DNA of 35,015 nucleotides from a virus. The position numbers and the translations under genes are program-made. The DNA is taken from UHGV virus genome UHGV-0006788; one strand, given 5' to 3'. Below are positions 7,237 to 31,708 of the stretch, one piece after another (positions within the stretch are counted from its first letter, which is position 1; each line of letters opens with the position of its first letter). A model generated the notes under the pieces. The model saw only the letters and a program-made list of their open reading frames with translations. It was not told the origin of the DNA and ran no database searches.

Positions 7237-8427
7237 TTAATTGCTGTTAACCGAGGTGACCAGATTTGCCAGGTATTTATCGGTAATACGCTGGCGCAGG
7301 GTCAGGTTTTCGAGAGGAGGCACCGGTGTATAGTCGTAGTCGATATACAGTTTTCCGGCCTTGAGGGTTTCCGCATCGTTGGATTCTTCGCTGAACCAGC
7401 AGGTCGCATCCACGATATAGCCGTTTGTTTTCAGCTCACGGAATTTGGCATTGATGCCGTCAACGATGTCGCGAATCAGCGTTGCGGTGATGGGCTTGTC
7501 CACCGCCCACATGTGCGCCTCAGCCATCGTGTCGGCCAGCACCTGCGCGGTGCGTGTGTAGTTTTCAAAGAGAAACAGCGGGTCATCAGAGCAGGTACGG
7601 TTACCCCAGAAGCGGAAACCGTCGCGGCGAATCAGCGTAGTGACGCCTGACTCGTTAAGCAGGTCAGCATCGGTGCCGGACTCCTGCAAATCCCAGAATA
7701 CAGAGGCGCTGATGCCGGTAACACCGTTCACCCCGACGTTGGACAGCGTTTTATGCCAGCCCTGCTCCTGGTCGATTTTAGCGCGCAGACCCAGCGCACG
7801 GGCGGTGGCATACGCGGTGGCAGTGGTACTGGTGACCGTATCCCATGCGAGGAAATCCGGCCAGATGACCATCAGCTCACGCTGGCTGAAATTCTGGCGG
7901 TAGGCTTTCACCTCGGAAATGGTCTTACAGCCCCATGTGCTGATATATCCGAAAGCGCGCAGCTTCTGACAGACGGATGCCAGTGCAACAGCCACCTCTT
8001 TGGTATCCAGCCCCGGCACACCAAGAATACGCGGTTTAACACCGGTTACCGACTCCGCCGCCAGCAGGGCTTTCAGTCCGGTGTACTGACCGTTTTCGTC
8101 GGTGGTTCCGATGATATTGGAAACAGTCTGCGCGAGTTTCGTTTCTTCGTCTTCGCCGGTGCCGTCTTCCACACGCACGACAACGGTGACCGGTTTTGAC
8201 TGGTCGGCGATGGCCTGCAACGATGCCGCCAGCGTGCCTTTTTTACCGGCCTTTGCAATTGCGCTCTGCACATTGGTAATCAGCACCGGTTTATTGAGGG
8301 GGAAGGTTTCCGCATCCGCATCGCTGGCCGTGCAGACCATGCCGACAATGGCAGTGGATACGGTGGAAATGACGCGGGTGCCGTCGTTAATCTCCAGCAC
8401 CTGCACGCCGTGATGATAGTCACTCAT
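7237..8427 (-). CDS. FI: Contractile tail sheath protein (P2 gpFI family)
   Basis: 396-aa ORF, the same length as P2 gpFI; first gene of the FI-FII-E-T-U-D operon. Confidence 0.9.
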   Translation of the reverse strand: MSDYHHGVQVLEINDGTRVISTVSTAIVGMVCTASDADAETFPLNKPVLITNVQSAIAKAGKKGTLAASLQAIADQSKPVTVVVRVEDGTGEDEETKLAQTVSNIIGTTDENGQYTGLKALLAAESVTGVKPRILGVPGLDTKEVAVALASVCQKLRAFGYISTWGCKTISEVKAYRQNFSQRELMVIWPDFLAWDTVTSTTATAYATARALGLRAKIDQEQGWHKTLSNVGVNGVTGISASVFWDLQESGTDADLLNESGVTTLIRRDGFRFWGNRTCSDDPLFLFENYTRTAQVLADTMAEAHMWAVDKPITATLIRDIVDGINAKFRELKTNGYIVDATCWFSEESNDAETLKAGKLYIDYDYTPVPPLENLTLRQRITDKYLANLVTSVNSN

Positions 8428-8520
8428 CCGTTTAACTCCGTGGTTAATGGGTGCAACTATTTTCTGTTGGGCAGAGCATGAGACGCTATTTGACCTGGCT
8501 GGTCAGTGGATGAAACAACA

Positions 8521-8551
8521 GATAAAGAAAAGGCGGGCAATTCGCCCGCCT
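8521..8551 (-). terminator. Putative intrinsic terminator insulating the FI operon from the upstream cargo island
   Basis: Stem ggcgggc / gcccgcc (8532..8538 and 8544..8550) with a short loop; on the minus strand the hairpin is followed by a U-rich tract (reverse complement of gataaagaaa). Confidence 0.4.
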
Positions 8552-8850
8552 GTCCTGATTTGTACTCACTCATTTTCCGCCTGACAATTTACATAGCCCA
8601 AATGCTATCAAATCTGACAGTCTGCTTTGAGCGAGAAACGGACGTTATAGATAGTGTGTTAAGGTTTTCTCTTTAATTGCAATGTCATATCCTCAACGAC
8701 CAAGTAGTGACATTTTTCGTTATTATATGGTATTGTGTTAGAATTAATTTATTGATGCGAAATCATTCAAAGCTTCATTGGTACTTATATTTAACTTATA
8801 ATCTTAATTAAAGAATTTCTTATTTTTAGATATTTTTATGCAAATACTTA

Positions 8851-9603
8851 ATGAAAGGAGGCATAAATTTGGATACTAACAGTCCATTAATTGAAGTCGA
8901 GCAGAACACTTCAGACATATATATTCCGTTGCAAGCCTGGTTCGAGGGGAGAAAATTCCTTTCACACAGATTTTCGGGCCAAAACTGTAGTGATAATCCA
9001 TCAAGTGATTGGGAGGCTTGGTTATCAATACAGGAATGCTGTCCTCTCCATCAGGTCAATAGTCTTAACTGGGTCGGACTGCATGAAGCTAGGAAAAATA
9101 CAGATTCATTCTTGGGGAATGTGAAGAGTGAATTTAATGGAAAGCTTCCCATTTTTATTCATGAAAAGGAGAGGGTGATAATCGAAAAAAAAATCGGCAT
9201 TCCTCCCAAACCCTCATTACCAATCTATTTAATATCATGCTCTGATATGGATGATACCAATGAACACATTGTTTATGTCGGAAAAACCGTTAACTCCAAA
9301 AGGTTTATTGGCGGTCACTCGGCTGCCTTAAAGTTGCTAGATCCCAAATATAATAATATGAAAAAGAGGATATATAGAGCCACCCCATGGTTTTATGATG
9401 GAAAAGACTATATTTCACTGGATTGGATTAGTCCGACATCATTAGCTATAGAATTACTTGACTTTATAGAGTCTCATCTTATTTACAATCTCAAGCCGGA
9501 ACTCAACACATCGAAGAAAAAAAATGAAGATACACGTTATTCTTTTTATCTTCACATTCAGAACTTTTTATCAACAGGCTTTCTTAATGATGAGTTTATT
9601 TAA
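8851..9603 (+). CDS. Cargo protein with a putative GIY-YIG-type nuclease domain
   Basis: 250-aa ORF in a visibly AT-rich island. The segment PIYLISCSDMDDTNEHIVYVGKTVNSKRFIGGH has the GIY...YIG spacing and the following Arg/His seen in GIY-YIG nucleases such as I-TevI and UvrC. The AAAGGAGG Shine-Dalgarno sits inside the annotated first codons, so the true start may be the in-frame TTG at 8869. Confidence 0.6.
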   Translation: MKGGINLDTNSPLIEVEQNTSDIYIPLQAWFEGRKFLSHRFSGQNCSDNPSSDWEAWLSIQECCPLHQVNSLNWVGLHEARKNTDSFLGNVKSEFNGKLPIFIHEKERVIIEKKIGIPPKPSLPIYLISCSDMDDTNEHIVYVGKTVNSKRFIGGHSAALKLLDPKYNNMKKRIYRATPWFYDGKDYISLDWISPTSLAIELLDFIESHLIYNLKPELNTSKKKNEDTRYSFYLHIQNFLSTGFLNDEFI

Positions 9604-9639
9604 TATCATTACTTATTAACATAGTAGAGATTAAACTAC

Positions 9640-9704
9640 GTCCGCTCCTGGCAAGCAGCGGACATTGCTGGCTGAGTTGAGGGTCCGCTGTGAGCGAGGA
9701 GCGG
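9640..9704. repeat. Pair of palindromic hairpin elements with arms GTCCGCT / AGCGGAC
   Basis: gtccgct-cctggcaagc-agcggac (9640..9663) and tccgct-gtgagcgagg-agcgga (9684..9704), between the two convergent cargo genes. A related palindrome occurs at 11786..11809. Confidence 0.5.
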
Positions 9705-9978
9705 AAGTTCAAAATTTTTCATAACGACTGATGAGAACAACACTAATTTTCGAACTTACTGGTACAAAAAATTTCCATAATCTTATAAAAAGTGGGGGAG
9801 TCAGTATGGTTCAATATTTGAAATACTACTTGTTTATGTTGAGAAAATTTTAAGCTTGACCTGGTTACCAGATTACAGCCGATCAACACCTAGACATCGA
9901 AACTTAGAGGTACCTCTGCTTTCAGGCATACTTAGAGGTCTATGTCTAAACCACCCGCTATGCAGGTGGTTGATTTAC

Positions 9979-11514
9979 CTAATTCGGCCTTGCTTGAATA
10001 GCAGACTCTATAGCTGCTCGGAATTCCGGGGCATCAGTTCTTAATCGATAATCATCAAGGGTATTGAATATTTCTAGAAGTTCTCTACGATAATGCGGCG
10101 GTGCTGAATTACCTTCGCCTCTAGTGGTGAAAATTAATAATGAGTCAGCGACGTCTTTTAATTTTTTATTCCTTTTCAACCTAATATAACAAGATACAAC
10201 TATATCAAGAATATGCTTTCTAGATTTCAAGGTGAGTTTATTATTAGGCATAACCAACTGCAGCATAGCACCAAGTAATTTGGTAGCCTCTTTTGAAATA
10301 TAATGAAGATCGAAATTATCTATTTCTTTATTTTCTTGAGGAATCTCCTTTTCATCTATCCATTCGCATTGTTCTGCCCAATCTGTAGCGACGCTAAATA
10401 AATGACAGAGAAGGAAGTGAAAAGGTGTTTCCCATTCACCACTATATTCATCTGATTGCCTATTCATATTCTTTATAATTTTCCTTGCGAAATATGAATA
10501 GTAATGCAACCATAAATGATCCTGAAGACCCTGGTGAATACCTTCATGAACCATAATTTCAAACAGCGTGACACCTGAGTAAATAGGACATTTATATTTT
10601 GAAGCATCGTAATAGGAACCTAAAGACTTATTAAGTGCAGCAATAATTTTTTCATCTTCATCTAACCTCCAGTAGAGATAGTCACCGATATCACGGTATA
10701 TTGCTAAATCAGCTGCAAACTTAGCATTGGAAAAGAAAAAATGTAATATACGGTTGTTTTTTGGAATCAATAAACGATGTCCTCGACTAACGTTAAGATT
10801 ATTTTTAAGCTCAACATATAGACGACTGTTAGGTGAACCAAGTAATGCACTGATAAAATTAGAAGTAAAGTCAGAACGAACTATTGGCTCGATCTTGATT
10901 AACTCAAGGCAGAGGGATGGGTGCGCAAGTGCAAAGTGATTGGTAAGTTCAGGTGATGAGACAATATTTAACAATGCTTCATGTGCATGTTCAGCAGCTG
11001 TCTCGCGATTAGAGATGCGGAGATTGTTAGCTATCTTATCACAAAGTCGATTCTTCACAGGTCTATCAATTATTGATATTAATTTTTCTAGTTGAGGTGC
11101 CAACAATTGTGCCAGATCGTCGTATCGTTTAGTAAGGTGCAAATTTTCCACTAACTCTAGAAATATCCCTGTTCTTCCAATTGAGAGTTTAGGGTTTTTT
11201 AAGCGAAATAAAATGTAAATAGCAACTGCGAGTGATATCAGGTATACGGCACTTGAACTATCTAATCCCCATTTCCAGGGGCCAAAGCTAAAATATAAGT
11301 CTAGTGATTTTAAAGCCGGTGCAAACACCAAATAATTGCTTAGTAAGAATGCAAACCCAACAATTACCCAATCCCACCACGCTAGGCAGAACCTTAAACG
11401 TAGTCGAGCGTTTGGCGTAATAAGGGCCCATACAGCAGCAATAACGCCCAATATGGTAAGTAGACTTGATGTATCAATTTTGGTTGGCGGTGTCATAATT
11501 TCTCTTGTAATCAT
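9979..11514 (-). CDS. Cargo protein, membrane-anchored (hydrophobic N-terminal segments), function unknown
   Basis: 511-aa ORF in the AT-rich island; the first ~110 residues hold several hydrophobic stretches (LLTILGVIAAVWALI, WDWVIVGFAFLLSNYLVFAPAL, AVYLISLAVAIYILF), followed by a ~400-aa soluble region with no motif I recognise. Confidence 0.65.
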   Translation of the reverse strand: MITREIMTPPTKIDTSSLLTILGVIAAVWALITPNARLRLRFCLAWWDWVIVGFAFLLSNYLVFAPALKSLDLYFSFGPWKWGLDSSSAVYLISLAVAIYILFRLKNPKLSIGRTGIFLELVENLHLTKRYDDLAQLLAPQLEKLISIIDRPVKNRLCDKIANNLRISNRETAAEHAHEALLNIVSSPELTNHFALAHPSLCLELIKIEPIVRSDFTSNFISALLGSPNSRLYVELKNNLNVSRGHRLLIPKNNRILHFFFSNAKFAADLAIYRDIGDYLYWRLDEDEKIIAALNKSLGSYYDASKYKCPIYSGVTLFEIMVHEGIHQGLQDHLWLHYYSYFARKIIKNMNRQSDEYSGEWETPFHFLLCHLFSVATDWAEQCEWIDEKEIPQENKEIDNFDLHYISKEATKLLGAMLQLVMPNNKLTLKSRKHILDIVVSCYIRLKRNKKLKDVADSLLIFTTRGEGNSAPPHYRRELLEIFNTLDDYRLRTDAPEFRAAIESAIQARPN

Positions 11515-11785
11515 TGTTTGATGTACATCGGAATGGTTTCAAATGATAAGGCTCTGTGTATGATAAATCAGAACGTTATGCACGTTTAAGAATACCCTCA
11601 AAATGGCACATTTTAATCTAAAAATGGCATTAAATGGACACTACTTGTCCACACAAGTTTTTTTCAGTCGGCTTTTCCCGACTAACGTTTGGGGTGTCCT
11701 ATTGAAACTACGCTCCTTATAAAAGCAATACTGTAGCTGTATGTTTATCAAAGGGGTTGTGCTAACCAAATTACTGAAGCCTAAG

Positions 11786-11809
11786 GTCCGCTCTTGGCAC
11801 AGAGCGGAC
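11786..11809. repeat. Palindromic hairpin related to the 9640..9704 elements
   Basis: gtccgctct-tggcac-agagcggac, a 9-bp perfect stem; the loop-proximal ggcacagag can alternatively pair with ctctgtgcc at 11827..11835. Lies between the cargo island and the stop of G. Confidence 0.5.
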
Positions 11810-11870
11810 TGTCAGATCAGGCTTTACTCTGTGCCATAGATATGTAAGCTCACACCAGAGCTCATACAAC

Positions 11871-12398
11871 TTATTGTGGCATTTTCGGCCATTCGGGATT
11901 TGCAGGATCCACACGGCTGACCAGAACACTGTAGCGTTCCCATGCTTCCAGTCGGCTATGCTCCTCATCTGTTGCCATGTTCAGCCTGACAGCGCGCTCC
12001 AGTGGCTGAATAACGCTTTCCGCTTCGGAAAGTAACGCGGCCTTTTGTGATTCTGTCTGTTGTTGCTGTTCGTCTGCCGTATAAATCCGCTTAATCACGG
12101 CACCATCCTTAAACATCCATTTACCTGAGTCATCAGCACGTCGGTTGGCGGTAATATCAGGAACCTCGACAACGCTAAAACCTTCAGGGTTAAGCGTTGA
12201 AGCATCTCTGGTGATGCCGACAATTATATTATTCTCGTCGTAAACAATCTTTATCGTGTCTTCCTGAAAATTACTTACTTCCTCATACCAGTTTTTTCCG
12301 TCTTCGGACCATAACCAGATAACATCAAAATTTTTTGTCAGTTGATATTGAGCAACAGTTTTTGGATTACCCGCAGTAATATTTTTTAAATGCTGCAT
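11871..12398 (-). CDS. G: Tail fiber assembly chaperone (P2 gpG family)
   Basis: 175-aa ORF, the same length as P2 gpG, immediately downstream of the tail fiber gene H. Confidence 0.85.
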
Positions 12399-12401
12399 AA
12401 A

Positions 12402-14492
12402 TTACACCTGTGCGACGTTATACCATGTGCCATTGATGTATTTTTGTATCGGTCTGAATACTGCGGGGTCATCACCATCGACTTCACCGACAATACCAAG
12501 CCCTGTAATTACGTGCCCTGCTTTCTCATACATAACCCCTTTCTGCATAGTCTGAACAACACGAGTGCCCAGGCGAATATCCCGGACATAGCGAGAATCT
12601 GATTCAGCTTTGGTGTATGCACCAACATCTCCCGCTGATGGTTTTCGTGTTGTGGTATAGAAATCAGACCAGCCAGATTCAAAACCATAACCATCACGGG
12701 CTGACCTGTAAGATATACCGCCATTTTTATAATTCACACGAAACTGTACAGCCGGGCAGCTACCAGCATTTATATTAAAGTGAAGAATTAATGCAGATGC
12801 TCCCCCAATCAGAGCGTTGTATGCGCCACTGTCCCAATTCCATCCAACGGCTGTATCACCATTAACCGTATTACCTGTCTGCCGAAGTGCAAATGCACCG
12901 ACATTTCTGGCATTAAGGGTAATATCTCCAGAACCATCAAAGGCAACACCTGCTATTTTCCTCGGTGTTTCGAGTTTTGAGGCTGTTGCAGCATTTCCTG
13001 AAAGGCTGGAAATAAATGGATGTGAACAGTAATAACCACGTCCATTTTTAAAATCCAGAATAGCCTGTACGTTCGTGCTTTCTGTAGCGGGATTAGTTGC
13101 CCCCCACTTATATGTCGTCTGACCGACGACATAATACTCTGTCGGAACAATAACCGTTAGCCCTTCCTCTGCAAGAATTTGTACTGGGAAAGCTCTGGCT
13201 TCAACATAAAAAACACTACATACATCATCATCTTTCAGGCTTGTAACAATGGAATGGATTGAACGCTCATTAGTCTGATACGTCCAGAAATAACCTGCCG
13301 CATATGAACCACGATCGGTCCAGCCTCCGGGCATAACCATGCCATTAAACTCGCAGTTATTCATTACATAATCGCCGTTATAACAACCAGTTGAAATAAC
13401 GACGCGGGATGCCATTTCTCCTGAAAGGCTGGCAGCACGGCGAAAGATAACGGGATACCACTTCCCGGCAACGACATTTGCAGGGGCTGCAAACGAATAC
13501 TTTCGCATTCCCTTTTTCTTATCCACTTCACCTTTGCTGTAAACATTAATGTTACTCAGGAAGCGTCCTTTATCAGGAATATCCGCACCGTTCTGATCTT
13601 TCTGAAGACGTTTTTCAGCATTGTCATAGGCAGACTTCACCGCTTTTGGTGTTGCAGCCAGCGTTTCAGAATCACTGTTGGTGGCGCTACTGAGCTGGAC
13701 AAGACCTTTTCGCGCTGTGGTGGCATCCTGTGCAGTGTATTTCCCGTTAGCAAGGTCATACGCTGTCTTAACCGCCTTTGGCGTTGCCGCAAGCGTTTCA
13801 GAATCGCTGTTGGTGGCGCTACTGAGCTGGACAAGGCCTTTTCGCGCTGTGGTGGCGTCCTGTGCAGTGTATTTCCCGTTAGCAAGGTCATATGCTGCTT
13901 TTACCGCTTTTGGTGTTGCGGCGAGTGTTTCAGACGTGCTGTTGGTCGCACTGCTTAACTGAGTAAAACCTTTGGCGGTCAGCGAGGCGTCCGGGTGACG
14001 TCGTGACTGTTCATGTTCTGCAATTTTGTCATCAACGTAATCCTGCGTTGCCATCACCGTTGTGGTGTCAATGGTCAGCGCCACTGAGGCCACACTGCTG
14101 ACGATGATGACCATGCGGCAGGTCTGCGAACGCCCTGAGCCTTCGGCAAGAGCTGGCTTATAACTTTCAGCCATGTTCGCCACGGCAATTAACGTTCCAG
14201 CATCATCGTACAGGCCAAGCTCACGCATCCAGAAACCCCCCACCTCCGGCGGAATAACCAGCTCTGCGATAATATAATTACTGTTTCGTTTGTCCTGGCT
14301 GATTTTGTTCAGCGCATGTCGCCAGACTTCGTGGATAAGCCCGGTCTGTCCGGCATCCGGGACTGGCAATTTACCACCGCCATCCCCGACGGCCATCGTG
14401 GTAATGTTGACCTTCCGCCCTCCCGGCGCGGTTGCCGCTGCCAGCTTTGCTGCACCAGCAGTGGTGATAACGGTTCTGAATTTTGTGCTCAT
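12402..14492 (-). CDS. H: Tail fiber protein (P2 gpH family) with internal tandem repeats
   Basis: 696-aa ORF; the N-terminal region is as expected for gpH; residues ~174-293 contain about 2.7 tandem copies of a 44-aa unit (KG..QLSSATNS.SETLAATPKAVK.AYDLANGKYTAQDATTAR); C-terminal receptor-binding part follows. Confidence 0.85.
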   Translation of the reverse strand: MSTKFRTVITTAGAAKLAAATAPGGRKVNITTMAVGDGGGKLPVPDAGQTGLIHEVWRHALNKISQDKRNSNYIIAELVIPPEVGGFWMRELGLYDDAGTLIAVANMAESYKPALAEGSGRSQTCRMVIIVSSVASVALTIDTTTVMATQDYVDDKIAEHEQSRRHPDASLTAKGFTQLSSATNSTSETLAATPKAVKAAYDLANGKYTAQDATTARKGLVQLSSATNSDSETLAATPKAVKTAYDLANGKYTAQDATTARKGLVQLSSATNSDSETLAATPKAVKSAYDNAEKRLQKDQNGADIPDKGRFLSNINVYSKGEVDKKKGMRKYSFAAPANVVAGKWYPVIFRRAASLSGEMASRVVISTGCYNGDYVMNNCEFNGMVMPGGWTDRGSYAAGYFWTYQTNERSIHSIVTSLKDDDVCSVFYVEARAFPVQILAEEGLTVIVPTEYYVVGQTTYKWGATNPATESTNVQAILDFKNGRGYYCSHPFISSLSGNAATASKLETPRKIAGVAFDGSGDITLNARNVGAFALRQTGNTVNGDTAVGWNWDSGAYNALIGGASALILHFNINAGSCPAVQFRVNYKNGGISYRSARDGYGFESGWSDFYTTTRKPSAGDVGAYTKAESDSRYVRDIRLGTRVVQTMQKGVMYEKAGHVITGLGIVGEVDGDDPAVFRPIQKYINGTWYNVAQV
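13614..13973. repeat. Tandem 132-bp repeats (about 2.7 copies) inside the tail fiber gene H
   Basis: Near-identical DNA units visible on direct reading (for example cgctgttggtggcgctactgagctggacaag near 13676 and 13808); they generate the repeat-driven spurious ORFs on both strands. Confidence 0.8.
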
Positions 14493-23358: not shown

Positions 23359-25131
23359 ATGACCATCACCACAGACACCACTCTTTTACACGACCCGCGT
23401 CGTCAGGCGGCGCTGCTGTACTGGCAGGGGTTTTCCGTGCCGCAGATTGCCGCCATGTTGCAGATGAAACGCCCGACGGTGCAGAGCTGGAAACAGCGCG
23501 ACGGCTGGGACAGCGTTGCTCCCATCAGCCGTGTCGAAATGAGTCTGGAAGCGCGGCTGACCCAGCTCATCATAAAACCGCAGAAAACAGGCGGTGACTT
23601 CAAGGAAATTGACCTGCTCGGACGCCAGATTGAACGACTGGCACGGGTAAACCGCTACAACCAGACCGGCAACGAGGCAGACCTTAATCCGAACATCGCT
23701 AACCGCAACAAAGGCGGGCGGCGCAAACCGAAAAAGAATTTTTTCAGCGACGAGGCTATCGAAAAGCTGGAGCAGATTTTCTTTGAGCAGTCTTTCGAAT
23801 ATCAGTTGCACTGGTATCGCGCCGGGCTTGAGCACCGCATCCGCGATATCCTGAAATCCCGCCAGATTGGCGCGACGTTTTATTTTTCCCGCGAGGCGCT
23901 GCTGCGCGCCCTGAAAACCGGTCATAACCAGATTTTTCTGTCGGCCAGTAAAACGCAGGCGTATGTGTTCCGCGAATACATCATCGCCTTTGCCCGGCTG
24001 GTTGACGTTGACCTGACCGGTGACCCGATTGTCCTGGGCAATAACGGCGCAAAACTGATTTTTCTCGGCACCAACTCCAACACCGCACAGAGCCATAACG
24101 GCGACCTGTACGTCGACGAGATTTTCTGGATCCCGAATTTTCAGGTACTGCGTAAGGTGGCATCAGGTATGGCCTCACAGAGTCACCTGCGCTCGACCTA
24201 TTTCTCCACCCCGTCCACGCTGGCGCACGACGCCTACCCGTTCTGGTCGGGTGAACTGTTCAACCGGGGACGCGCCAGCGCCGCCGAACGCGTGGAAATC
24301 GACGTCAGTCATAACGCCCTTGCCGGTGGGCTTCTCTGTGCGGACGGCCAGTGGCGACAGATTGTCACCATTGAGGACGCCCTGAAAGGCGGCTGCACGC
24401 TGTTCGACATTGAGCAGCTCAAACGCGAAAACAGCGCCGACGATTTTAAAAACCTGTTCATGTGTGAATTTGTTGACGACAAGGCATCGGTGTTCCCGTT
24501 CGAGGAGCTGCAACGCTGCATGGTCGACACGCTGGAAGAATGGGAAGACTATGCGCCGTTTGCCGCCAATCCGTTCGGCTCCCGCCCGGTATGGATTGGT
24601 TACGACCCGTCACACCGTGGCGACAGCGCCGGATGCGTGGTACTGGCACCGCCGGTGGTGGCCGGTGGCAAATTCAGAATACTTGAGCGTCACCAGTGGA
24701 AAGGCATGGACTTTGCCACCCAGGCGGAATCCATCCGCAAACTCACCGAAAAATACAACGTCGAATACATCGGGATTGATGCCACCGGCCTCGGTGTCGG
24801 CGTGTTCCAGCTCGTGCGCTCGTTCTATCCCGCCGCGCGCGATATCCGCTACACGCCGGAAATGAAAACTGCAATGGTGCTCAAGGCAAAAGACGTTATC
24901 CGCCGTGGCTGTCTGGAATATGACGTCAGCGCCACCGACATCACCAGCTCGTTTATGGCTATCCGCAAGACCATGACCAGCAGCGGACGCAGCGCCACCT
25001 ATGAGGCCAGCCGCAGCGAGGAAGCCAGCCACGCCGACCTCGCCTGGGCGACCATGCACGCCCTGTTAAATGAGCCACTCACCGCCGGTATCAGCACCCC
25101 GCTGACATCCACCATTCTGGAGTTTTACTGA
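23359..25131 (+). CDS. P: Terminase large (ATPase) subunit (P2 gpP family)
   Basis: 590-aa product starting MTITTDTTLLHDPRRQAALLYWQGFSV; the track ORF begins 10 codons upstream. The stop overlaps the Q start (TGATG). Confidence 0.9.
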   Translation: MTITTDTTLLHDPRRQAALLYWQGFSVPQIAAMLQMKRPTVQSWKQRDGWDSVAPISRVEMSLEARLTQLIIKPQKTGGDFKEIDLLGRQIERLARVNRYNQTGNEADLNPNIANRNKGGRRKPKKNFFSDEAIEKLEQIFFEQSFEYQLHWYRAGLEHRIRDILKSRQIGATFYFSREALLRALKTGHNQIFLSASKTQAYVFREYIIAFARLVDVDLTGDPIVLGNNGAKLIFLGTNSNTAQSHNGDLYVDEIFWIPNFQVLRKVASGMASQSHLRSTYFSTPSTLAHDAYPFWSGELFNRGRASAAERVEIDVSHNALAGGLLCADGQWRQIVTIEDALKGGCTLFDIEQLKRENSADDFKNLFMCEFVDDKASVFPFEELQRCMVDTLEEWEDYAPFAANPFGSRPVWIGYDPSHRGDSAGCVVLAPPVVAGGKFRILERHQWKGMDFATQAESIRKLTEKYNVEYIGIDATGLGVGVFQLVRSFYPAARDIRYTPEMKTAMVLKAKDVIRRGCLEYDVSATDITSSFMAIRKTMTSSGRSATYEASRSEEASHADLAWATMHALLNEPLTAGISTPLTSTILEFY

Positions 25132-26159
25132 TGAGCAAGAAAAAAGGGAAAACACCGCAACCTGCGGCAAAAACAATGACCGCCAGCGCCCCGAAAATGG
25201 AGGCATTCACCTTTGGTGAGCCGGTGCCGGTACTCGACCGCCGTGACATTCTGGATTACGTCGAGTGCATCAGTAACGGCAGATGGTATGAGCCGCCGGT
25301 CAGCTTTACCGGTCTGGCAAAAAGCCTGCGTGCTGCCGTACATCACAGCTCACCGATTTACGTCAAACGTAATATTCTGGCTTCAACGTTTATTCCGCAC
25401 CCGTGGCTTTCCCAGCAGGATTTCAGCCGCTTTGTGCTGGATTTTCTGGTGTTCGGTAATGCGTTTCTGGAAAAGCGCTACAGCACCACCGGTAAGGTCA
25501 TCAGACTGGAAACCTCACCGGCAAAATATACCCGCCGTGGCGTGGAGGAGGATGTTTACTGGTGGGTGCCGTCCTTCAACGAGCCGACACCTTTCGCGCC
25601 CGGCTCCGTGTTTCACCTGCTGGAGCCGGATATTAATCAGGAGCTGTACGGTCTGCCGGAATATCTCAGCGCCCTTAACTCTGCCTGGCTGAATGAGTCG
25701 GCCACGCTGTTCCGCCGCAAGTATTACGAAAACGGCGCACATGCCGGATACATCATGTACGTCACCGATGCCGTGCAGGATCGCAACGATATCGAAATGC
25801 TTCGCGAAAACATGGTGAAGTCGAAAGGCCGCAACAACTTTAAAAATCTGTTTCTCTATGCCCCGCAGGGGAAAGCCGACGGCATTAAAATTATCCCGCT
25901 CAGTGAAGTGGCAACGAAGGACGATTTTTTTAATATCAAAAAAGCCAGCGCCGCTGACCTGCTGGACGCGCACCGCATCCCCTTTCAGTTGATGGGCGGC
26001 AAGCAGGAGAACGTCGGGTCGCTGGGTGATATTGAGAAAGTGGCAAAGGTCTTTGTCCGCAATGAGCTTATCCCGCTACAGGACAGGATCCGCGAGATAA
26101 ACGGCTGGCTCGGTCAGGAGGTCATCCGCTTTAAAGATTACAGTCTAGAATCTAATTAA
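25131..26159 (+). CDS. Q: Portal protein (P2 gpQ family)
   Basis: 342-aa ORF (P2 gpQ is about 344 aa), translationally coupled to P and reading toward cos. Confidence 0.85.
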   Translation: MSKKKGKTPQPAAKTMTASAPKMEAFTFGEPVPVLDRRDILDYVECISNGRWYEPPVSFTGLAKSLRAAVHHSSPIYVKRNILASTFIPHPWLSQQDFSRFVLDFLVFGNAFLEKRYSTTGKVIRLETSPAKYTRRGVEEDVYWWVPSFNEPTPFAPGSVFHLLEPDINQELYGLPEYLSALNSAWLNESATLFRRKYYENGAHAGYIMYVTDAVQDRNDIEMLRENMVKSKGRNNFKNLFLYAPQGKADGIKIIPLSEVATKDDFFNIKKASAADLLDAHRIPFQLMGGKQENVGSLGDIEKVAKVFVRNELIPLQDRIREINGWLGQEVIRFKDYSLESN

Positions 26160-26254: not shown

Positions 26255-26944
26255 TCAATCTTTAACTTCAATATATGAAGAAGAAAACCATATAGATTTT
26301 TTCCCATTTATGTATTTAGAAACAGGCGAGCCATCTTCGTTCATTGCCTCAGCACTAAATGTTACATAATACATTCCTTTTTCTTTTGTCGAAACAAGAT
26401 AGTTCAAGCGTCTTTCGGCAGAGATAGGAACGGATATATCATATAAAGGTATATTTTTAGCTTTTCCTTGCGAGCTACTTTCTTCATTAAGAACAGCCAA
26501 CTCCTCATAATAATTTGGATAAAAAACTTCCGTAGCGACTTGCTTTGCACCGGCCGATAAAACACGACTAACAGCAAGGGACTTGTTATTAAGCTTCACA
26601 TAAATTCGCTCATTACTGTTATTCCTAATAGTCACAATAGGCTTTATATAAAACACATCATCGATTTTAACAACATTAACGTCAACATTAAAAAATGTCG
26701 ATTCTGTATTTCTAATTCTATTTCTTAACTCTATAAGATCAGCTTCTGCCTTATCCCTTTGGTGCAAAACATCAAAAGTATATCCTCCCCACACAAGTGT
26801 CAAAACAGCGCACAATGACATCACGACGTTATTAAACTGATCGTGTGTTCTGTAAATATCTTTGAATTTTAAAATTAATAATAGACATGCTATGAATAGC
26901 ATGCCTATTATCAGCCAGTGTTCTTTTACAAATTCAAAGTTCAT
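26255..26944 (-). CDS. Cargo protein, predicted small membrane protein (candidate effector), function unknown
   Basis: 229-aa ORF in a visibly AT-rich island; hydrophobic N-terminal segments (WLIIGMLFIACLLLIL and VVMSLCAVLTLVWGGYTF) followed by a soluble domain; its start codon lies 2 nt after the stop of the upstream 366-aa gene. Confidence 0.65.
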   Translation of the reverse strand: MNFEFVKEHWLIIGMLFIACLLLILKFKDIYRTHDQFNNVVMSLCAVLTLVWGGYTFDVLHQRDKAEADLIELRNRIRNTESTFFNVDVNVVKIDDVFYIKPIVTIRNNSNERIYVKLNNKSLAVSRVLSAGAKQVATEVFYPNYYEELAVLNEESSSQGKAKNIPLYDISVPISAERRLNYLVSTKEKGMYYVTFSAEAMNEDGSPVSKYINGKKSIWFSSSYIEVKD

Positions 26945-26946
26945 AG

Positions 26947-28047
26947 TTAGTCACTCGCATGCCTCGCATCACCATCTTCAGGGAAATTGATCCCCTGTCC
27001 GATCTCACGGTTCGTTGGACGAGCAGAAACAAAGCCTCTATTTTGTCTTTTTAAACGCAACTCTAGAACTTGAGAAACTCTATCAAAGTTTAATCCATCC
27101 ATTGCAACCTCTTTTTTCCCTTCAATATGAGATCGAAGTTCCTCACTTATACGATTATCAACCGTTGAAGCGAAGGCTACATCATGATTAAAAATGGCCC
27201 CCATAATTAACATAAACGCAATTCCGGCCTTTCTATTATTTGTTTTAAATTGTAGCCAAACATCCCCCGGAGACATCAACATTTGTTGAGCAGTCAAGGA
27301 TAACTCTCCATTATTAGAAAGTCTTTCCATCTCAAACTGAACAACTTCGTTTGTATACTCGCCATCAAACTCTTCGCCAATTAATAGCGCAAGTACCTGC
27401 ACTCTATCGACCAGCTCAGCCAGCTGCTTAAGAGTATGATGCCGAATGGCTTCTGCTTGCTCGACTCTTAAGCTAGTACAGAAAATATTATCCGTTATAA
27501 AGAATGACATTAACCAATGCAGTACTTCTTCTGACTTCCCGCCCAAAGAGAATACGGTCTGGTATGCAGTAAACGATTTCTGAAGAGCTAATGGAATCTC
27601 TCGTCTGCGAACTGGCTCTCCCCATGTGACTCTACGTCTTACATGAAACCCTTCATTATTACCTAAACATTCACGCTCAAAATACGCGGAAGATGCAATA
27701 ACTCCAGGAACAACCATATCACCTGACAAAGTGAAAACAACATCACCGACCTGCATATCTATGAGGAAATTTTCAATTTGGGTATGAATATTTCTTGAAC
27801 CAATAGTATCTAACCCATCAACCTTTTGATTAATATTTTCATGGTTAATTTCATCATTAAAGTCAATTTGATCTGGACTTAACCTATCCAAGTGAGCAGT
27901 AGCAACCATATTGCATTCAAGGAAGTCTGCAAAATATCTATACTTAATCCCAGGTCTAACGACCCAACACTTTACATTTAAATCAACATGTTGTACTGAA
28001 ATAGCTCTTTGTGATGAAGTTCCAAGCATAGCTGATCCATAATTCAA
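26947..28047 (-). CDS. Cargo protein, function unknown (first gene of a two-gene operon between Q and cos)
   Basis: 366-aa ORF in the AT-rich island with no motif I recognise; weak or no Shine-Dalgarno before the first ATG, and an alternative start at Met7 is possible. Confidence 0.65.
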   Translation of the reverse strand: MNYGSAMLGTSSQRAISVQHVDLNVKCWVVRPGIKYRYFADFLECNMVATAHLDRLSPDQIDFNDEINHENINQKVDGLDTIGSRNIHTQIENFLIDMQVGDVVFTLSGDMVVPGVIASSAYFERECLGNNEGFHVRRRVTWGEPVRRREIPLALQKSFTAYQTVFSLGGKSEEVLHWLMSFFITDNIFCTSLRVEQAEAIRHHTLKQLAELVDRVQVLALLIGEEFDGEYTNEVVQFEMERLSNNGELSLTAQQMLMSPGDVWLQFKTNNRKAGIAFMLIMGAIFNHDVAFASTVDNRISEELRSHIEGKKEVAMDGLNFDRVSQVLELRLKRQNRGFVSARPTNREIGQGINFPEDGDARHASD

Positions 28048-28253
28048 AAAATTTTACGCATTTTACATATTTTTATTTAAGACTCTAGAGAGTTAGGAAT
28101 GATGAATCGCTTCAACAGATTATTTTTTGTGCAGATAGTGTGCTTAAACCAACTCATCGTAACGAAAGCACTCGCCTGAATCGTAAAGATAACATCTCAT
28201 GACTCGATTCATAGGCTAATAGTATTATGTAATGGTCGTTAATGGAGCGCGCA

Positions 28254-28272
28254 GTGCTTTCCCCGCCTCGCC
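28254..28272 (-). other. cos site (19-nt cohesive-end sequence of P2-like phages)
   Basis: gtgctttccccgcctcgcc is the reverse complement of GGCGAGGCGGGGAAAGCAC, the P2/P4 cohesive end as I recall it; the following bases on the minus strand (TGCGCGC...) also fit the P2 left end. Confidence 0.75.
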
Positions 28273-28750
28273 CGCCCGCTTCACGGGGCGGTTTTAATGC
28301 AGTTGCATAGATACTATGGATCCGCACCAGTCCTGACCGCACGCAGCCTGAACGGACATCCCCAACGCATGCAAAAACATTCACTTGTTGCATGCATAGC
28401 TTTTTAAGTACGCCATACCGCAACTGTACATTTTTAAGCAATTGGCAACTTTAAAAAATTTACATTGCTTTCAAGACCTTATCATCCGTAGTCTCTGTTT
28501 TTTACTTTGAGCTACATCAATAAAATCTCAAACATGTTTAATGCAAAGCCCTTGTTACACAACATAGAATGTATGTCTAGAAACAACGACATACTATATG
28601 TTGTGTTTTTCCGGCTCTCTGTTCGGTGATATGCCAAATCACTTTGCGTTTAAACAGAGCATTATTTCAGGGCAAGACTTCGCTCAAAAGTCATTCCACC
28701 TAAGAAGCGCATATACCGGTGGAAGTTGCCCTCTACTTACAGGAGGCAAT

Positions 28751-29166: not shown

Positions 29167-31443
29167 TCAAATGGGTAACGAGAACCCCGGCCACTCATCA
29201 GCAACCGGATACGTGAATTTTTTCCCGTCATAATTTACGGTCGCGCCACGCGCCAGCGCCTCAAGCTCCCATCGTTGCGGCCTGATACCGTTCTGAGCGA
29301 GGTCAACGCGGATACGGGTAATTTGCAATCGTTCAGACCTGGTCAGTCTGGCAGATGGTGCAATTTCATGCGGTTTTAACGGGATTCCGTTTCTTTGCTG
29401 ACGGTTTGGTGTTCTCAGGTCGTGTTTTAATGCGCCCCTGAGCGCCCTCACGACCTCCGTGTCATTCCATTCGATAACACCGTCATCAACCAGATTAAGC
29501 ACTGCTGCGGCGTGTTCAGAAGGTGTGGGAGCCGGTAACGAAGTATCACCACCGGTGAGCTTTCCACAGTTATTGACAGGACTCCGAGGCGCGGCGATGC
29601 CGCTTTTTAAAGTCAAAGGCTCAACGACCGGAACTTTCGGCACAATGCGCCAGTCCGTCGTTCTGGTGATATGAATATGACGCGCGCCGAGATGCGGCGC
29701 GTAAATGCCGACCACTCTCTCGACTTCTTCCTCGTACTCGTTAACTTCATCCGACGGGCTACGGGCGACTCTGACAGTCTGACAATCGCGCGGGACATTT
29801 GCCCCACCCTGCGCGCTGATATACAACGCAAAATCACCACTGTCTGCGGCGGCGCGTGCAGCCTCGACGCGCTCGTCAAACTCATCAGCAATGCTGACGC
29901 CGCGCGGCAATTTGCGTAGTTCACGGTAAGCCCCCATTGTCGGCAGGCCAACCGTTTTAAATTGCGGGATGCGCCACGTTGACGCCCATGCGGTAACAGC
30001 CGCTGCAGTGTCTTTCAGCGGCCTGCCGGTGTCGTTATCGAGCTGACCATCCAGTGCATAGCCGTCGATGTTTTTTGAAATGTATTTCGCGATATATCCC
30101 GCAGCACCGCCCCGGTTAAGGTGTTTTGCCTGAAAACGGTTTCGCGCGGCTCCTCTTTCGTCGCCATCCTCTTTGAGCGCATAGCGACGCATGATTTCGA
30201 TAATCTGGTTACGCTGGCGTGGATTACAAAAAAGCATCATATGCCAGTGCGGCGTTCCGTCGTGGTGTGGCTCGACGACACGCAAACCGTAGACCTGTAA
30301 ATCATTATCCTTGAATGCCGTGCGCATCAGGCTCCAGATACGGCAGAGATAACGCTGCGCATCCTTTGGATTAAATGCCTCATCATTCCAGCCGTGATTA
30401 AGCTGGACGGTTTTATTTTCGCCTTTTCCGACCTGACGTGTCGGGTGATACTTTGACGGCGCGGTAAGCGTGATAAACATCCCCACATCACCCTCTGCGG
30501 CGGCGTAACGCTCAATACCGGCAATGGTGTTCATCAGCTCCATCCGGCGAATTTCAGGATTAGAAATACTGCCCATCACCTTACTGATAAGGTCGATGCG
30601 CTCGCCGGTTTCCCTGTTTTCAAGGTCACACGATTTAAGAAATTCCAGATTTGCCTGGCGGCGCGCACGCACATCACGAATGGCATGTTTACTGGCATAA
30701 GGTGAACGGTCTTTATTGACCTCCCCGACAGCAATCAGTAACGCCTCATGCCAGCGCATACGCTGGCCTTTAAGCTGACTAATCCACCACTCATCGTTAA
30801 ACAGGCGGGCAATGGCAGAATATGCCTGCCTCGTGGTCATCTGCCCTTTACGGTATTTTCTCCAGTAAAGCGGGGAAATATTGAAAGCACGTGCAGCGCC
30901 AGCAACATGACCATACAGGTGAGCCTGCGCCTCATCCGTAAACAGCGATTCTTTTTCGCCATGCGCATCCACCCAGGCATCGCAGAGTTCCTCATACATC
31001 ATGAAAAGCTGCGATGAGATTCGGGCGGCAAACTTTTTCAGCTCCTTGTCATTCATCCCCGGCAGGCGCGCATACTGGTCGCGCTCTGCCAGAAACAGCA
31101 ACGACGCGTCGGTGTTCATTTCATGGCGCTGATTCACGCGCTCAATGCGCGGCCATAAACGACGCTGAAAAGTGGATGTGAGGAAATAAAACCCGTGCAC
31201 CGGGCTTTTATTGCGCCGGATGTAGTCATAGCGTGAAGTAAACAGCGAGCGCAAAAAGTAAGGCAGGCGGTTAATCGTGGATAAAACACCTTGCACCTGA
31301 CGCATCTCGTCACGTGTAAGGGGTCTTTCGCGCCCGACGGCCTCGCGTGGCGCGTTCCATGCATAAGCACCGGTAAACGTCTTACCGGTGCCTGCGGCAA
31401 ATGCTGACGGAGGGACAAAACGCCCGGAGGCTTTAACGGCCAT
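29167..31443 (-). CDS. A: Replication initiation protein A (rolling-circle nickase, P2 gpA family)
   Basis: Product MAVKASGRFVPPSAFAAGTGK... of about 758 aa; P2 gpA is about 761 aa. The track ORF is extended 14 codons upstream; the exact start is uncertain. Confidence 0.85.
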   Translation of the reverse strand: MAVKASGRFVPPSAFAAGTGKTFTGAYAWNAPREAVGRERPLTRDEMRQVQGVLSTINRLPYFLRSLFTSRYDYIRRNKSPVHGFYFLTSTFQRRLWPRIERVNQRHEMNTDASLLFLAERDQYARLPGMNDKELKKFAARISSQLFMMYEELCDAWVDAHGEKESLFTDEAQAHLYGHVAGAARAFNISPLYWRKYRKGQMTTRQAYSAIARLFNDEWWISQLKGQRMRWHEALLIAVGEVNKDRSPYASKHAIRDVRARRQANLEFLKSCDLENRETGERIDLISKVMGSISNPEIRRMELMNTIAGIERYAAAEGDVGMFITLTAPSKYHPTRQVGKGENKTVQLNHGWNDEAFNPKDAQRYLCRIWSLMRTAFKDNDLQVYGLRVVEPHHDGTPHWHMMLFCNPRQRNQIIEIMRRYALKEDGDERGAARNRFQAKHLNRGGAAGYIAKYISKNIDGYALDGQLDNDTGRPLKDTAAAVTAWASTWRIPQFKTVGLPTMGAYRELRKLPRGVSIADEFDERVEAARAAADSGDFALYISAQGGANVPRDCQTVRVARSPSDEVNEYEEEVERVVGIYAPHLGARHIHITRTTDWRIVPKVPVVEPLTLKSGIAAPRSPVNNCGKLTGGDTSLPAPTPSEHAAAVLNLVDDGVIEWNDTEVVRALRGALKHDLRTPNRQQRNGIPLKPHEIAPSARLTRSERLQITRIRVDLAQNGIRPQRWELEALARGATVNYDGKKFTYPVADEWPGFSLPI

Positions 31444-31708
31444 ATGAGCCAAAAGCCTCTGAACAACGCTTGCTGAGTTGCTCAACCTGCGCGTTTAAAT
31501 CAGCAAAAGACTTTGCGCTTCCGGTCAGAATATCGTGATGCATCAGGCCGGAAACGAGCTGGCTTAATTTCGGGTAATAACCAACCACCGCCAGCCATTC
31601 CTGACCGGCGTTTTTACCGCTTTCAGCTCTCTTTTTCTCGTGGAGAATAAACTGAAAGCTGTCACTGGTAACGACATAACGTTCGCCAATTTCAATACGA
31701 ATACTCAT
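31433..31708 (-). CDS. Small early-operon protein (P2 orf83-like), function unknown
   Basis: 91-aa ORF immediately upstream of and slightly overlapping A, in the position of the small early ORFs of P2. Confidence 0.6.
   Translation of the reverse strand: MSIRIEIGERYVVTSDSFQFILHEKKRAESGKNAGQEWLAVVGYYPKLSQLVSGLMHHDILTGSAKSFADLNAQVEQLSKRCSEAFGSYGR

Follow-up and report, generated by a model that had tools for sequence, protein, structure and literature searches.

A predicted membrane-anchored protein carried on a hairpin-bounded, single-gene cassette in the P2 FI-G hotspot is a candidate anti-phage factor

A membrane-protein gene in the Z/fun hotspot

The viral genome UHGV-0006788 (35,015 nt; this whole stretch was analysed and is referred to as the window) carries, in an AT-rich island between the P2 tail genes FI and G, a gene for a predicted membrane protein that we consider a candidate anti-phage factor. 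An initial annotation had described the site as an FI-G cargo island and the gene as AT-rich, and both descriptions were confirmed: the membrane gene lies in the Z/fun hotspot, and the island (8500-11870, 3.4 kb) has a GC content of 0.35-0.39 compared to 0.54-0.59 in the flanking tail genes, which are 94-96% identical to those of P2 and Wphi. The FI-G locus is a recognised accessory and defence hotspot of P2 (PMC13586616; bioRxiv 10.1101/2024.10.15.618418). The gene, the promoter-like match upstream of it and the two flanks of the hotspot are located as follows:

9979..11496, (-): membrane-protein gene, encoding 505 aa when started at Met7; the stop codon occupies 9979-9981
11513..11542, (-): weak, low-confidence match to a sigma-70-like promoter (TTGAAA-18-AACAAT), directly upstream of the membrane gene
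7237..8427, (-): tail sheath gene FI of P2, conserved, on one side of the hotspot
11871..12398, (-): tail-fibre assembly gene G of P2, conserved, on the opposite side

The longest open reading frame (ORF), 9979..11514 (-), runs uninterrupted for 511 codons from an upstream ATG at 11514, and the chance probability of 511 stop-free codons at 36.9% GC is ~2e-16. Because the ORF length is beyond chance and the ratio of non-synonymous to synonymous substitution rates (dN/dS) between two natural alleles is ~0.16, the membrane gene is real and purifying selection acts on it. The ORF had been reported with a product of 511 aa; the reading frame was borne out but that length is less likely, since translation probably starts at Met7 (11496) and yields 505 aa. 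The RefSeq annotation of the gene is 1518 nt long and starts at Met7, as do essentially all homologues (their N-terminus reads MTPPTK), and a Shine-Dalgarno-like AAGAGA is found 5 nt ahead of Met7, while no such sequence precedes Met1. Residue numbers are nevertheless given in the 511-aa numbering throughout (Met1 = ATG 11514). Promoter-like sites were no commoner across the region than in shuffled sequence, so the match at 11513..11542 serves as a positional hint only. The 270-nt stretch upstream of the membrane gene also holds two direct repeats spaced 21 nt apart (11597-11608, CTCAAAATGGCA; 11618-11629, CTAAAAATGGCA), which may be an operator or regulator-binding site. A scan of the island against Rfam matched no RNA family.

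Three predicted membrane helices and a solenoid-like cytoplasmic domain

The protein divides into a short membrane module and a large soluble domain, the latter with one strongly conserved segment:

11200..11472, (-): N-terminal membrane module, residues 15-105, with three predicted transmembrane (TM) helices; the first loop is rich in Arg (RLRLR) and the second is conserved (FGPWKWG)
9982..11199, (-): predicted cytoplasmic domain (residues 106-511), all-alpha and solenoid-like
10480..10599, (-): segment with the highest conservation in the family, residues 306-345 (...FEIMVHEGIHQGLQDHLWLHYY...), with F318, M321, H333, W335, L336 and Y338 conserved family-wide and a local HExxH (138 representatives)

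Kyte-Doolittle hydropathy exceeded 1.5 (19-residue windows) at residues 15-33, 47-68 and 84-105 and nowhere beyond residue 120, and the helices of the AlphaFold2 model at 16-31, 46-70 and 86-106 coincided with these three segments. By both measures the hydrophobic N-terminus and the membrane anchoring in the initial annotation stood, with predicted TM helices present, whereas its count of three to four helices was narrowed to three, leaving no fourth. The first loop holds three Arg and no acidic residue, and six Lys/Arg are found in the 27 residues after the third helix. Because of these loop charges, the positive-inside rule predicts a polytopic inner-membrane protein whose N-terminus faces outwards and whose C-terminal domain is cytoplasmic, a location that its seven cysteines would fit. 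A cleaved signal peptide instead of the first TM helix is unlikely, as there is a Pro at -3 and the Arg-rich loop would need to be exported.

The AlphaFold2 model (36 homologues) was confident and all-helical, with a pLDDT of 82.9 and a pTM of 0.76, and assigns the cytoplasmic domain to the alpha-solenoid (HEAT/ARM-like) fold class. The likeness to HEAT/ARM alpha-solenoids holds at the level of the fold class only, with Foldseek TM-scores of at most 0.25 and no E-value reaching 1e-3; no sequence repeat family matches the membrane protein, and none of the listed structural matches is described as a membrane-anchored bacterial protein. At residues ~160-170 (about positions 11005-11035), the allele of the window and its closest relatives are without ~35 residues that are present in most family members. 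This gap region lies between the fourth and fifth cytoplasmic helices, where the confidence of the model was lowest (pLDDT <50 at residues 153-159), and may be a variable specificity loop.

A widespread family of hypothetical proteins

The membrane protein had been called an orphan, which is false and holds only in the sense of unannotated. A word-indexed search returned 165 clusters at 90% identity, all named 'hypothetical', none with a Pfam domain and with a coverage of ~98% of the length. An exhaustive profile search extended the family to at least 834 clusters at 50% identity (834 with E<=1e-3, 389 of them <1e-30), nearly all 505-600 aa long. Among species-level genomes, the family is spread over Gamma- and Betaproteobacteria and is frequent in environmental Betaproteobacteria, with one outlier metagenome-assembled genome each in Armatimonadota and Bacteroidota.

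None of the annotation libraries recognised the protein. Pfam contained no family that it matched, its sole NCBIfam matches (E 0.037-0.2) were far below the curated cut-offs, and 57 diverse members (down to 22% identity) gave two isolated weak matches in Pfam and none in NCBIfam. The only phage-protein family matched was PHROG 13820 (unknown function), and searching solved structures by sequence with profiles of two alignments (A1 and A4) gave no credible match. These results, together with the lack of a PADLOC match, agree with the earlier description of a ~400-aa cytoplasmic domain with no recognisable motif. Homology to a phage structural or housekeeping protein was not found in these searches either, and the gene is non-structural cargo. 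The RefSeq accessions of the protein were absent from those supplementary files of the DefensePredictor paper that were searched.

Twelve positions were conserved family-wide among 138 representatives (P199, S230, E235, G277, F318, M321, H333, W335, L336, Y338, E360 and W379), and E235, F318 and H333 were invariant in alignment A4. Most of them fall within residues 230-380 of the solenoid, which is consistent with one putative binding or catalytic patch. The TM segments of 138 distant relatives were conserved as strongly as the cytoplasmic core, suggesting that the membrane module is more than an anchor. Its second loop, FGPWKWG, was nearly invariant among close homologues, and the most variable regions were the extreme C-terminus and the region around residues 150-195.

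The membrane gene travels as a hairpin-bounded cassette

The membrane gene travels alone, as a ~2.1-kb cassette between two conserved hairpins, which are found in the window at the following positions:

9683..9706: B-type hairpin (GTCCGCTGTGAGCGAGGAGCGGAA), cassette end past the 3' terminus of the gene; folds with -6.4 kcal/mol (z -2.6)
11786..11809: A-type hairpin (GTCCGCTCTTGGCACAGAGCGGAC), upstream cassette end, adjoining P2 gene G; folds with -9.8 kcal/mol (z -2.8)

Related palindromes had been noticed on both sides of the gene, and we found them to be four 24-nt hairpins of the form GTCCGCT-N10-AGCGGAC, at 8620, 9640, 9683 and 11786. In dinucleotide shuffles the pattern was matched 1.6 times per window, compared to the five matches found (one of them unrelated, at 4731), a number that no shuffle reached, and three of the four hairpins fold stably as single-stranded DNA. 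They have two loop types, B (..TGAGCGAgg..) and A (..cTGGCAca..), and every cassette has a B hairpin at one end and an A hairpin at the other. The DNA common to the islands of other genomes covers positions 9682-11816 of the window, i.e. from the hairpin at 9683-9706 to that at 11786-11809. Copies with 99% identity in non-P2 islands likewise start at the B hairpin (L001 at 5002, L002 at 5014 and L022 at 5705; L numbers denote collected loci).

The same hairpins flank the membrane gene in the CP4-like islands L001, L002, L020 and L022 and in Leclercia (L023), and they stand between consecutive cargo genes that are unrelated to one another in a chromosomal array of Yersinia (L010) and in pathogenicity-type islands of E. 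coli, the CFT073 island among them. Altogether they were present in L001, L002, L010, L020-L023, L042, L043, L045 and L052, among them a Rac-like prophage, and an A-type hairpin is also found in P2 itself, at the end towards G. The exact 14-base pattern occurred eight times in 41 collected loci (~0.58 Mb), compared to an estimated ~0.004 expected, and a paired A and B junction was found at one to three places in 716 of 5426 E. coli genomes. GenBank entries from a 2004 survey of the P2 Z region carry 'left/right inverted repeats' annotated here, and the accessible recent papers on P2 hotspots do not mention hairpins or inverted repeats.

Overall, the hairpins look like a cassette-exchange system. 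In an integron, each cassette has an attC site of 57-141 nt at one of its ends, and the array is headed by an intI integrase gene with attI. The hairpins described here are far shorter than attC (24 nt), lie at both cassette ends and have two loop types, and no intI was annotated in the inspected loci. A gene for a 'site-specific integrase' of ~200 aa lies a few kb from hairpin cassettes in two E. coli islands (L042 7126-7728, CFT073, WP_001305361.1; L043 2857-3459), and it could be a fragment or a recombinase acting on the hairpins. Hairpin-bounded cassettes offer a concrete and testable lead on how prophage hotspots and genomic islands trade defence genes so rapidly.

The membrane gene was matched in 81 of 5426 complete E. 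coli genomes (76 over >=80% of its length), with an allele of >=99% identity in 43 genomes and one of ~94% in 35, while the whole two-gene island, with the GIY-YIG-like gene described below, was present in only six. Apart from P2-like prophages at G-FI, the contexts included integrase-bounded or CP4-like islands, and the cassette with 99% identity occurred between the same two hairpins in P2 prophages and CP4-like islands. The ~94% allele was found in a genomic island and in a Rac-like lambdoid prophage, where it follows the replication genes and adjoins a restriction endonuclease. SSU5-like phage-plasmids of E. coli and Klebsiella carry relatives with 51-75% identity, and a relative was also present on 16 IMG/VR viral contigs, one of which carries a 36% relative adjoining the sheath gene of a distant myovirus. 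No neighbouring gene was conserved across the contexts examined (islands, prophages, phage-plasmids and distant hosts). The gene is thus mobile as a single gene and is carried by four kinds of mobile element.

Family members lie next to known defence systems

Known defence genes were sought within 6 kb of the membrane gene and its homologues. Family members have as neighbours a putative AbiC in Yersinia, Lamassu and DUF3800 in Delftia, Gabija in Xanthomonas (GajB, 7e-266), Zorya type III in Pandoraea (ZorA3, E=0), a DndH-like giant protein in Allopusillimonas and Ppl-like ATPases in Pseudomonas and Stutzerimonas, and restriction endonucleases neighbour the gene in E. coli. The PADLOC candidates PDC-S33 and PDC-M11 were further neighbours, and pooled neighbour scans detected Shedu SduA (4e-196), a class I pAgo (3e-100), two LmuB and type II methyltransferases. 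We estimate that at least 8 of 19 species-level loci have a known system within this distance (Gabija, Zorya III, DndH-like, two Ppl-like, Shedu, pAgo and Lamassu), the last three coming from the pooled scan only and being unassigned to loci. The family is therefore associated with defence islands, a signal that is strong but qualitative, counted without a background model.

The pairing of the ~94% allele with a restriction endonuclease of 853-877 aa was the same in the genomic island and in the Rac-like prophage (L020 1752-4385; L021 1754-4315), with a disrupted IS30 between the two genes. The endonuclease side of this pair was also bounded by a B-type hairpin.

The neighbouring GIY-YIG-like cassette and other features of the window

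The gene on the other side of the B-type hairpin belongs to a cassette of its own:

8620..9663: independent neighbour cassette, bounded by a degenerate B-type hairpin (8620-8643) and an A-type hairpin (9640-9663) and carrying a 250-aa GIY-YIG-like gene at 8851..9603 (+)

As the initial annotation had it, the membrane gene is convergent with this GIY-YIG-like gene, whose product matched GIY-YIG below the threshold (E 0.03 and 0.09). This product is part of a separate family (~226 aa), in which some proteins are called GIY-YIG or have a match to PF20815. The protein had no match in PADLOC and is therefore not PD-T4-3. Members of this family are also found where the membrane gene is absent, next to SIR2 and STAND genes in a Proteus prophage and, in Acinetobacter, next to DUF3800 or Shedu as cargo of Tn7-like transposons. 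The GIY-YIG-like gene thus forms an independent cassette and is not a partner of the membrane gene; as a candidate single-gene nuclease defence, it is probably defence-related too.

A second AT-rich island (26255-28441, (-); GC 0.36-0.41) was found at the classical old/tin hotspot, between the following genes:

25131-26159: portal gene Q
29167-31485: ORF of 772 aa

It holds three ORFs, for products of 229, 366 and 95 aa, of which the second matches PDC-S02, a phage-defence candidate in PADLOC (E 4e-12); the 229- and 95-aa products had no match in Pfam or PADLOC. The tail fibre gene H (12402-14492, (-)) contains three tandem copies of a ~45-aa motif (…KGLVQLSSATNSxSETLAATPKAVKxAYDLANGKYTAQDATTAR…), which is ordinary for P2-type fibres.

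Proposed function and alternative explanations

We propose, with a probability of about 0.5, that the membrane gene encodes a single-gene, membrane-anchored anti-phage protein in which the solenoid would be the sensor and the membrane module the effector. The gene forms an accessory cassette of its own within the Z/fun hotspot of a P2-like prophage and points against the late tail operons, as fun(Z) does, so it would presumably be expressed in the lysogen. Its product would act at the inner membrane as an immunity protein against phages or other mobile elements. The solenoid is of a fold that binds proteins and bears a conserved polar patch (S230, E235, H333 and E360); it would sense a phage component or a host component altered by the phage, and the conserved three-helix module would then execute the response, which may be a disturbance of the membrane (abortive infection) or a block of genome entry. 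We regard a defence role of one kind or another as likely, and the abortive-infection version specifically as a tentative suggestion.

Several observations weigh against this proposal. The gene is dispensable and decays in some hosts, as shown by several E. coli lineages (including L002 5310-6826, NCTC9022) in which a 1-nt deletion in the 99% allele leaves two ORFs of 332 and 175 aa. The topology was derived from hydropathy and charge alone, and an alpha-solenoid brings no intrinsic effector chemistry, so that an effector role of the three helices is speculation. PADLOC-DB v2.0.0 returned no family at E<=1 for the membrane protein, not even a candidate family, and literature searches by accession, PHROG identifier and descriptors returned no paper on the family and no phenotype on record. 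Guilt by association is indirect and was counted on only ~25 contexts, and no recognisable defence gene was found near the P. aeruginosa island copy, the phage-plasmid copies or the copies in L001 and L022.

One alternative is superinfection exclusion without abortive infection, in which the solenoid would bind incoming tape-measure or ejection proteins, or a host channel, and DNA translocation would be blocked while the cell survives. This would suit a prophage-encoded, single-gene, inner-membrane product that is oriented like the conversion gene fun(Z), has a conserved and presumably periplasmic loop (FGPWKWG) and adjoins tail genes in two unrelated myoviruses, all the more as solenoids bind proteins. 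Known exclusion proteins such as T4 Imm, P22 SieA, HK97 gp15 and Ltp are, however, small (well <250 aa) compared to the 505 aa of the membrane protein, and most family members are found in non-prophage chromosomal defence islands, which fits general immunity better than the exclusion of one phage by another; we consider this explanation unlikely. It is rather improbable, too, that the gene is cargo without a defence role, serving envelope physiology, stress tolerance, colonisation or virulence or forming an addiction or toxin-like element, and that its proximity to defence genes comes from common integration hotspots. Several contexts do resemble pathogenicity islands, no catalytic or nucleic-acid-binding domain was detected in the protein, and P2 hotspots also carry partition systems and cytolethal distending toxin (PMC9122126). 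Yet the neighbours in phylogenetically distant hosts are specifically defence systems rather than genes for virulence, a trait that has no relevance in the environmental Betaproteobacteria in which the family is common, and there is no conserved partner antitoxin or regulator.

The remaining two alternatives would give the protein a nuclease partner or an enzymatic activity. A two-gene system, consisting of a membrane sensor and the convergent GIY-YIG-like nuclease as effector, is suggested by all six complete E. coli genomes with the GIY-YIG-like cassette, which have the membrane gene beside it, and by the same pair in Leclercia and in three IMG/VR P2-like contigs. Nevertheless, of the 81 E. 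coli genomes with a match to the membrane gene just 6 carry the nuclease, distant homologues of the membrane protein have no such neighbour, and the GIY-YIG-like family in turn occurs alone in Proteus and Acinetobacter. In addition, the two genes are convergent and separated by two hairpins, each of which ends its own cassette. The distribution largely refutes such a system, which we consider very improbable. A membrane-bound zinc metalloprotease, cleaving a host or phage protein as Lit (peptidase U49) cleaves EF-Tu, would draw on the sequence HEGIHQGLQDH, in which an HExxH (HEGIH, residues 323-327) is followed by a further His at metzincin spacing (H333, as the third ligand) and which is nearly invariant in the 36 closest homologues. 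Among the 138 representatives, in contrast, the usual residues at position 323 are S, T, L or R (His in 9 of 138) and position 327 is H, Y or F (His in 58 of 138), leaving H333 alone conserved, so that the motif is confined to a close sub-clade. No peptidase model in Pfam or NCBIfam matched the query or the 57 members, and the modelled fold is a helical repeat rather than a zincin. A metalloprotease is already refuted as a property of the whole family and hardly tenable for this protein.

If the protein does act in defence, a widespread new family (at least 834 clusters at 50% identity, in two proteobacterial classes) joins the anti-phage repertoire, one that PADLOC v2, Pfam and NCBIfam miss and whose carriers include P. 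aeruginosa, phage-plasmids of Klebsiella and clinical E. coli strains of the ST167 type. With its unusual architecture of three conserved TM helices, a solenoid and no enzymatic domain, the protein could show how infection is sensed and answered without a signalling partner. If it has no anti-phage effect, the gain is a described architecture for a common 'hypothetical protein'. A more far-reaching version is doubtful. It would combine a hitherto unrecognised class of one-protein inner-membrane immune receptors, whose solenoid recognises a phage protein and whose three-helix module and invariant periplasmic W-x-W-G loop bring about an ion leak or the closure of DNA entry, with an integron-like hairpin exchange system, missed by recent studies, that moves single-gene cassettes among P2 prophages, lambdoid prophages and Enterobacterales islands. 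If this were true, hairpin exchange would be a mechanism for the very rapid swapping of P2 defence loci (PMC13586616).

Comparison with known systems

P2 Fun(Z) (NP_046777), which blocks phage T5 according to its GenBank note, shares with the membrane protein the site between G and FI, the orientation against the tail operons, the status of a single non-essential gene and a similar size (528 compared to 505 aa). Although site and size suggest membership in the Fun(Z) family, there is no sequence similarity (BLASTP E 0.62), and Fun(Z) has a Walker A motif (GEKGTGKT), whereas the membrane protein has three predicted TM helices and no NTPase motif. Fun(Z) is thus a positional analogue only. Other single polypeptides that join membrane helices to a large cytoplasmic domain, and that are likewise found in defence islands and prophages, carry an NTPase or nuclease domain, whereas sequence and fold searches detected none here.

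The family itself was not described in the libraries or the literature that were searched, while its probable function class, a protective membrane protein of prophages and defence islands, is already well known. Specialists expect P2 hotspots to harbour defence genes that are yet to be described. Lambda RexB, P22/lambda SieB, P22 SieA, T4 Imm and HK97 gp15 are accessory inner-membrane proteins of temperate phages, which act as single polypeptides or small systems against superinfecting phages. No homology of the membrane protein to them was detected, and neither PADLOC nor Pfam, which hold models for several of them, gave a match. Unlike the membrane protein, they are small and without a large cytoplasmic solenoid, and in contrast to them the membrane-protein family is mostly chromosomal and extends over two proteobacterial classes.

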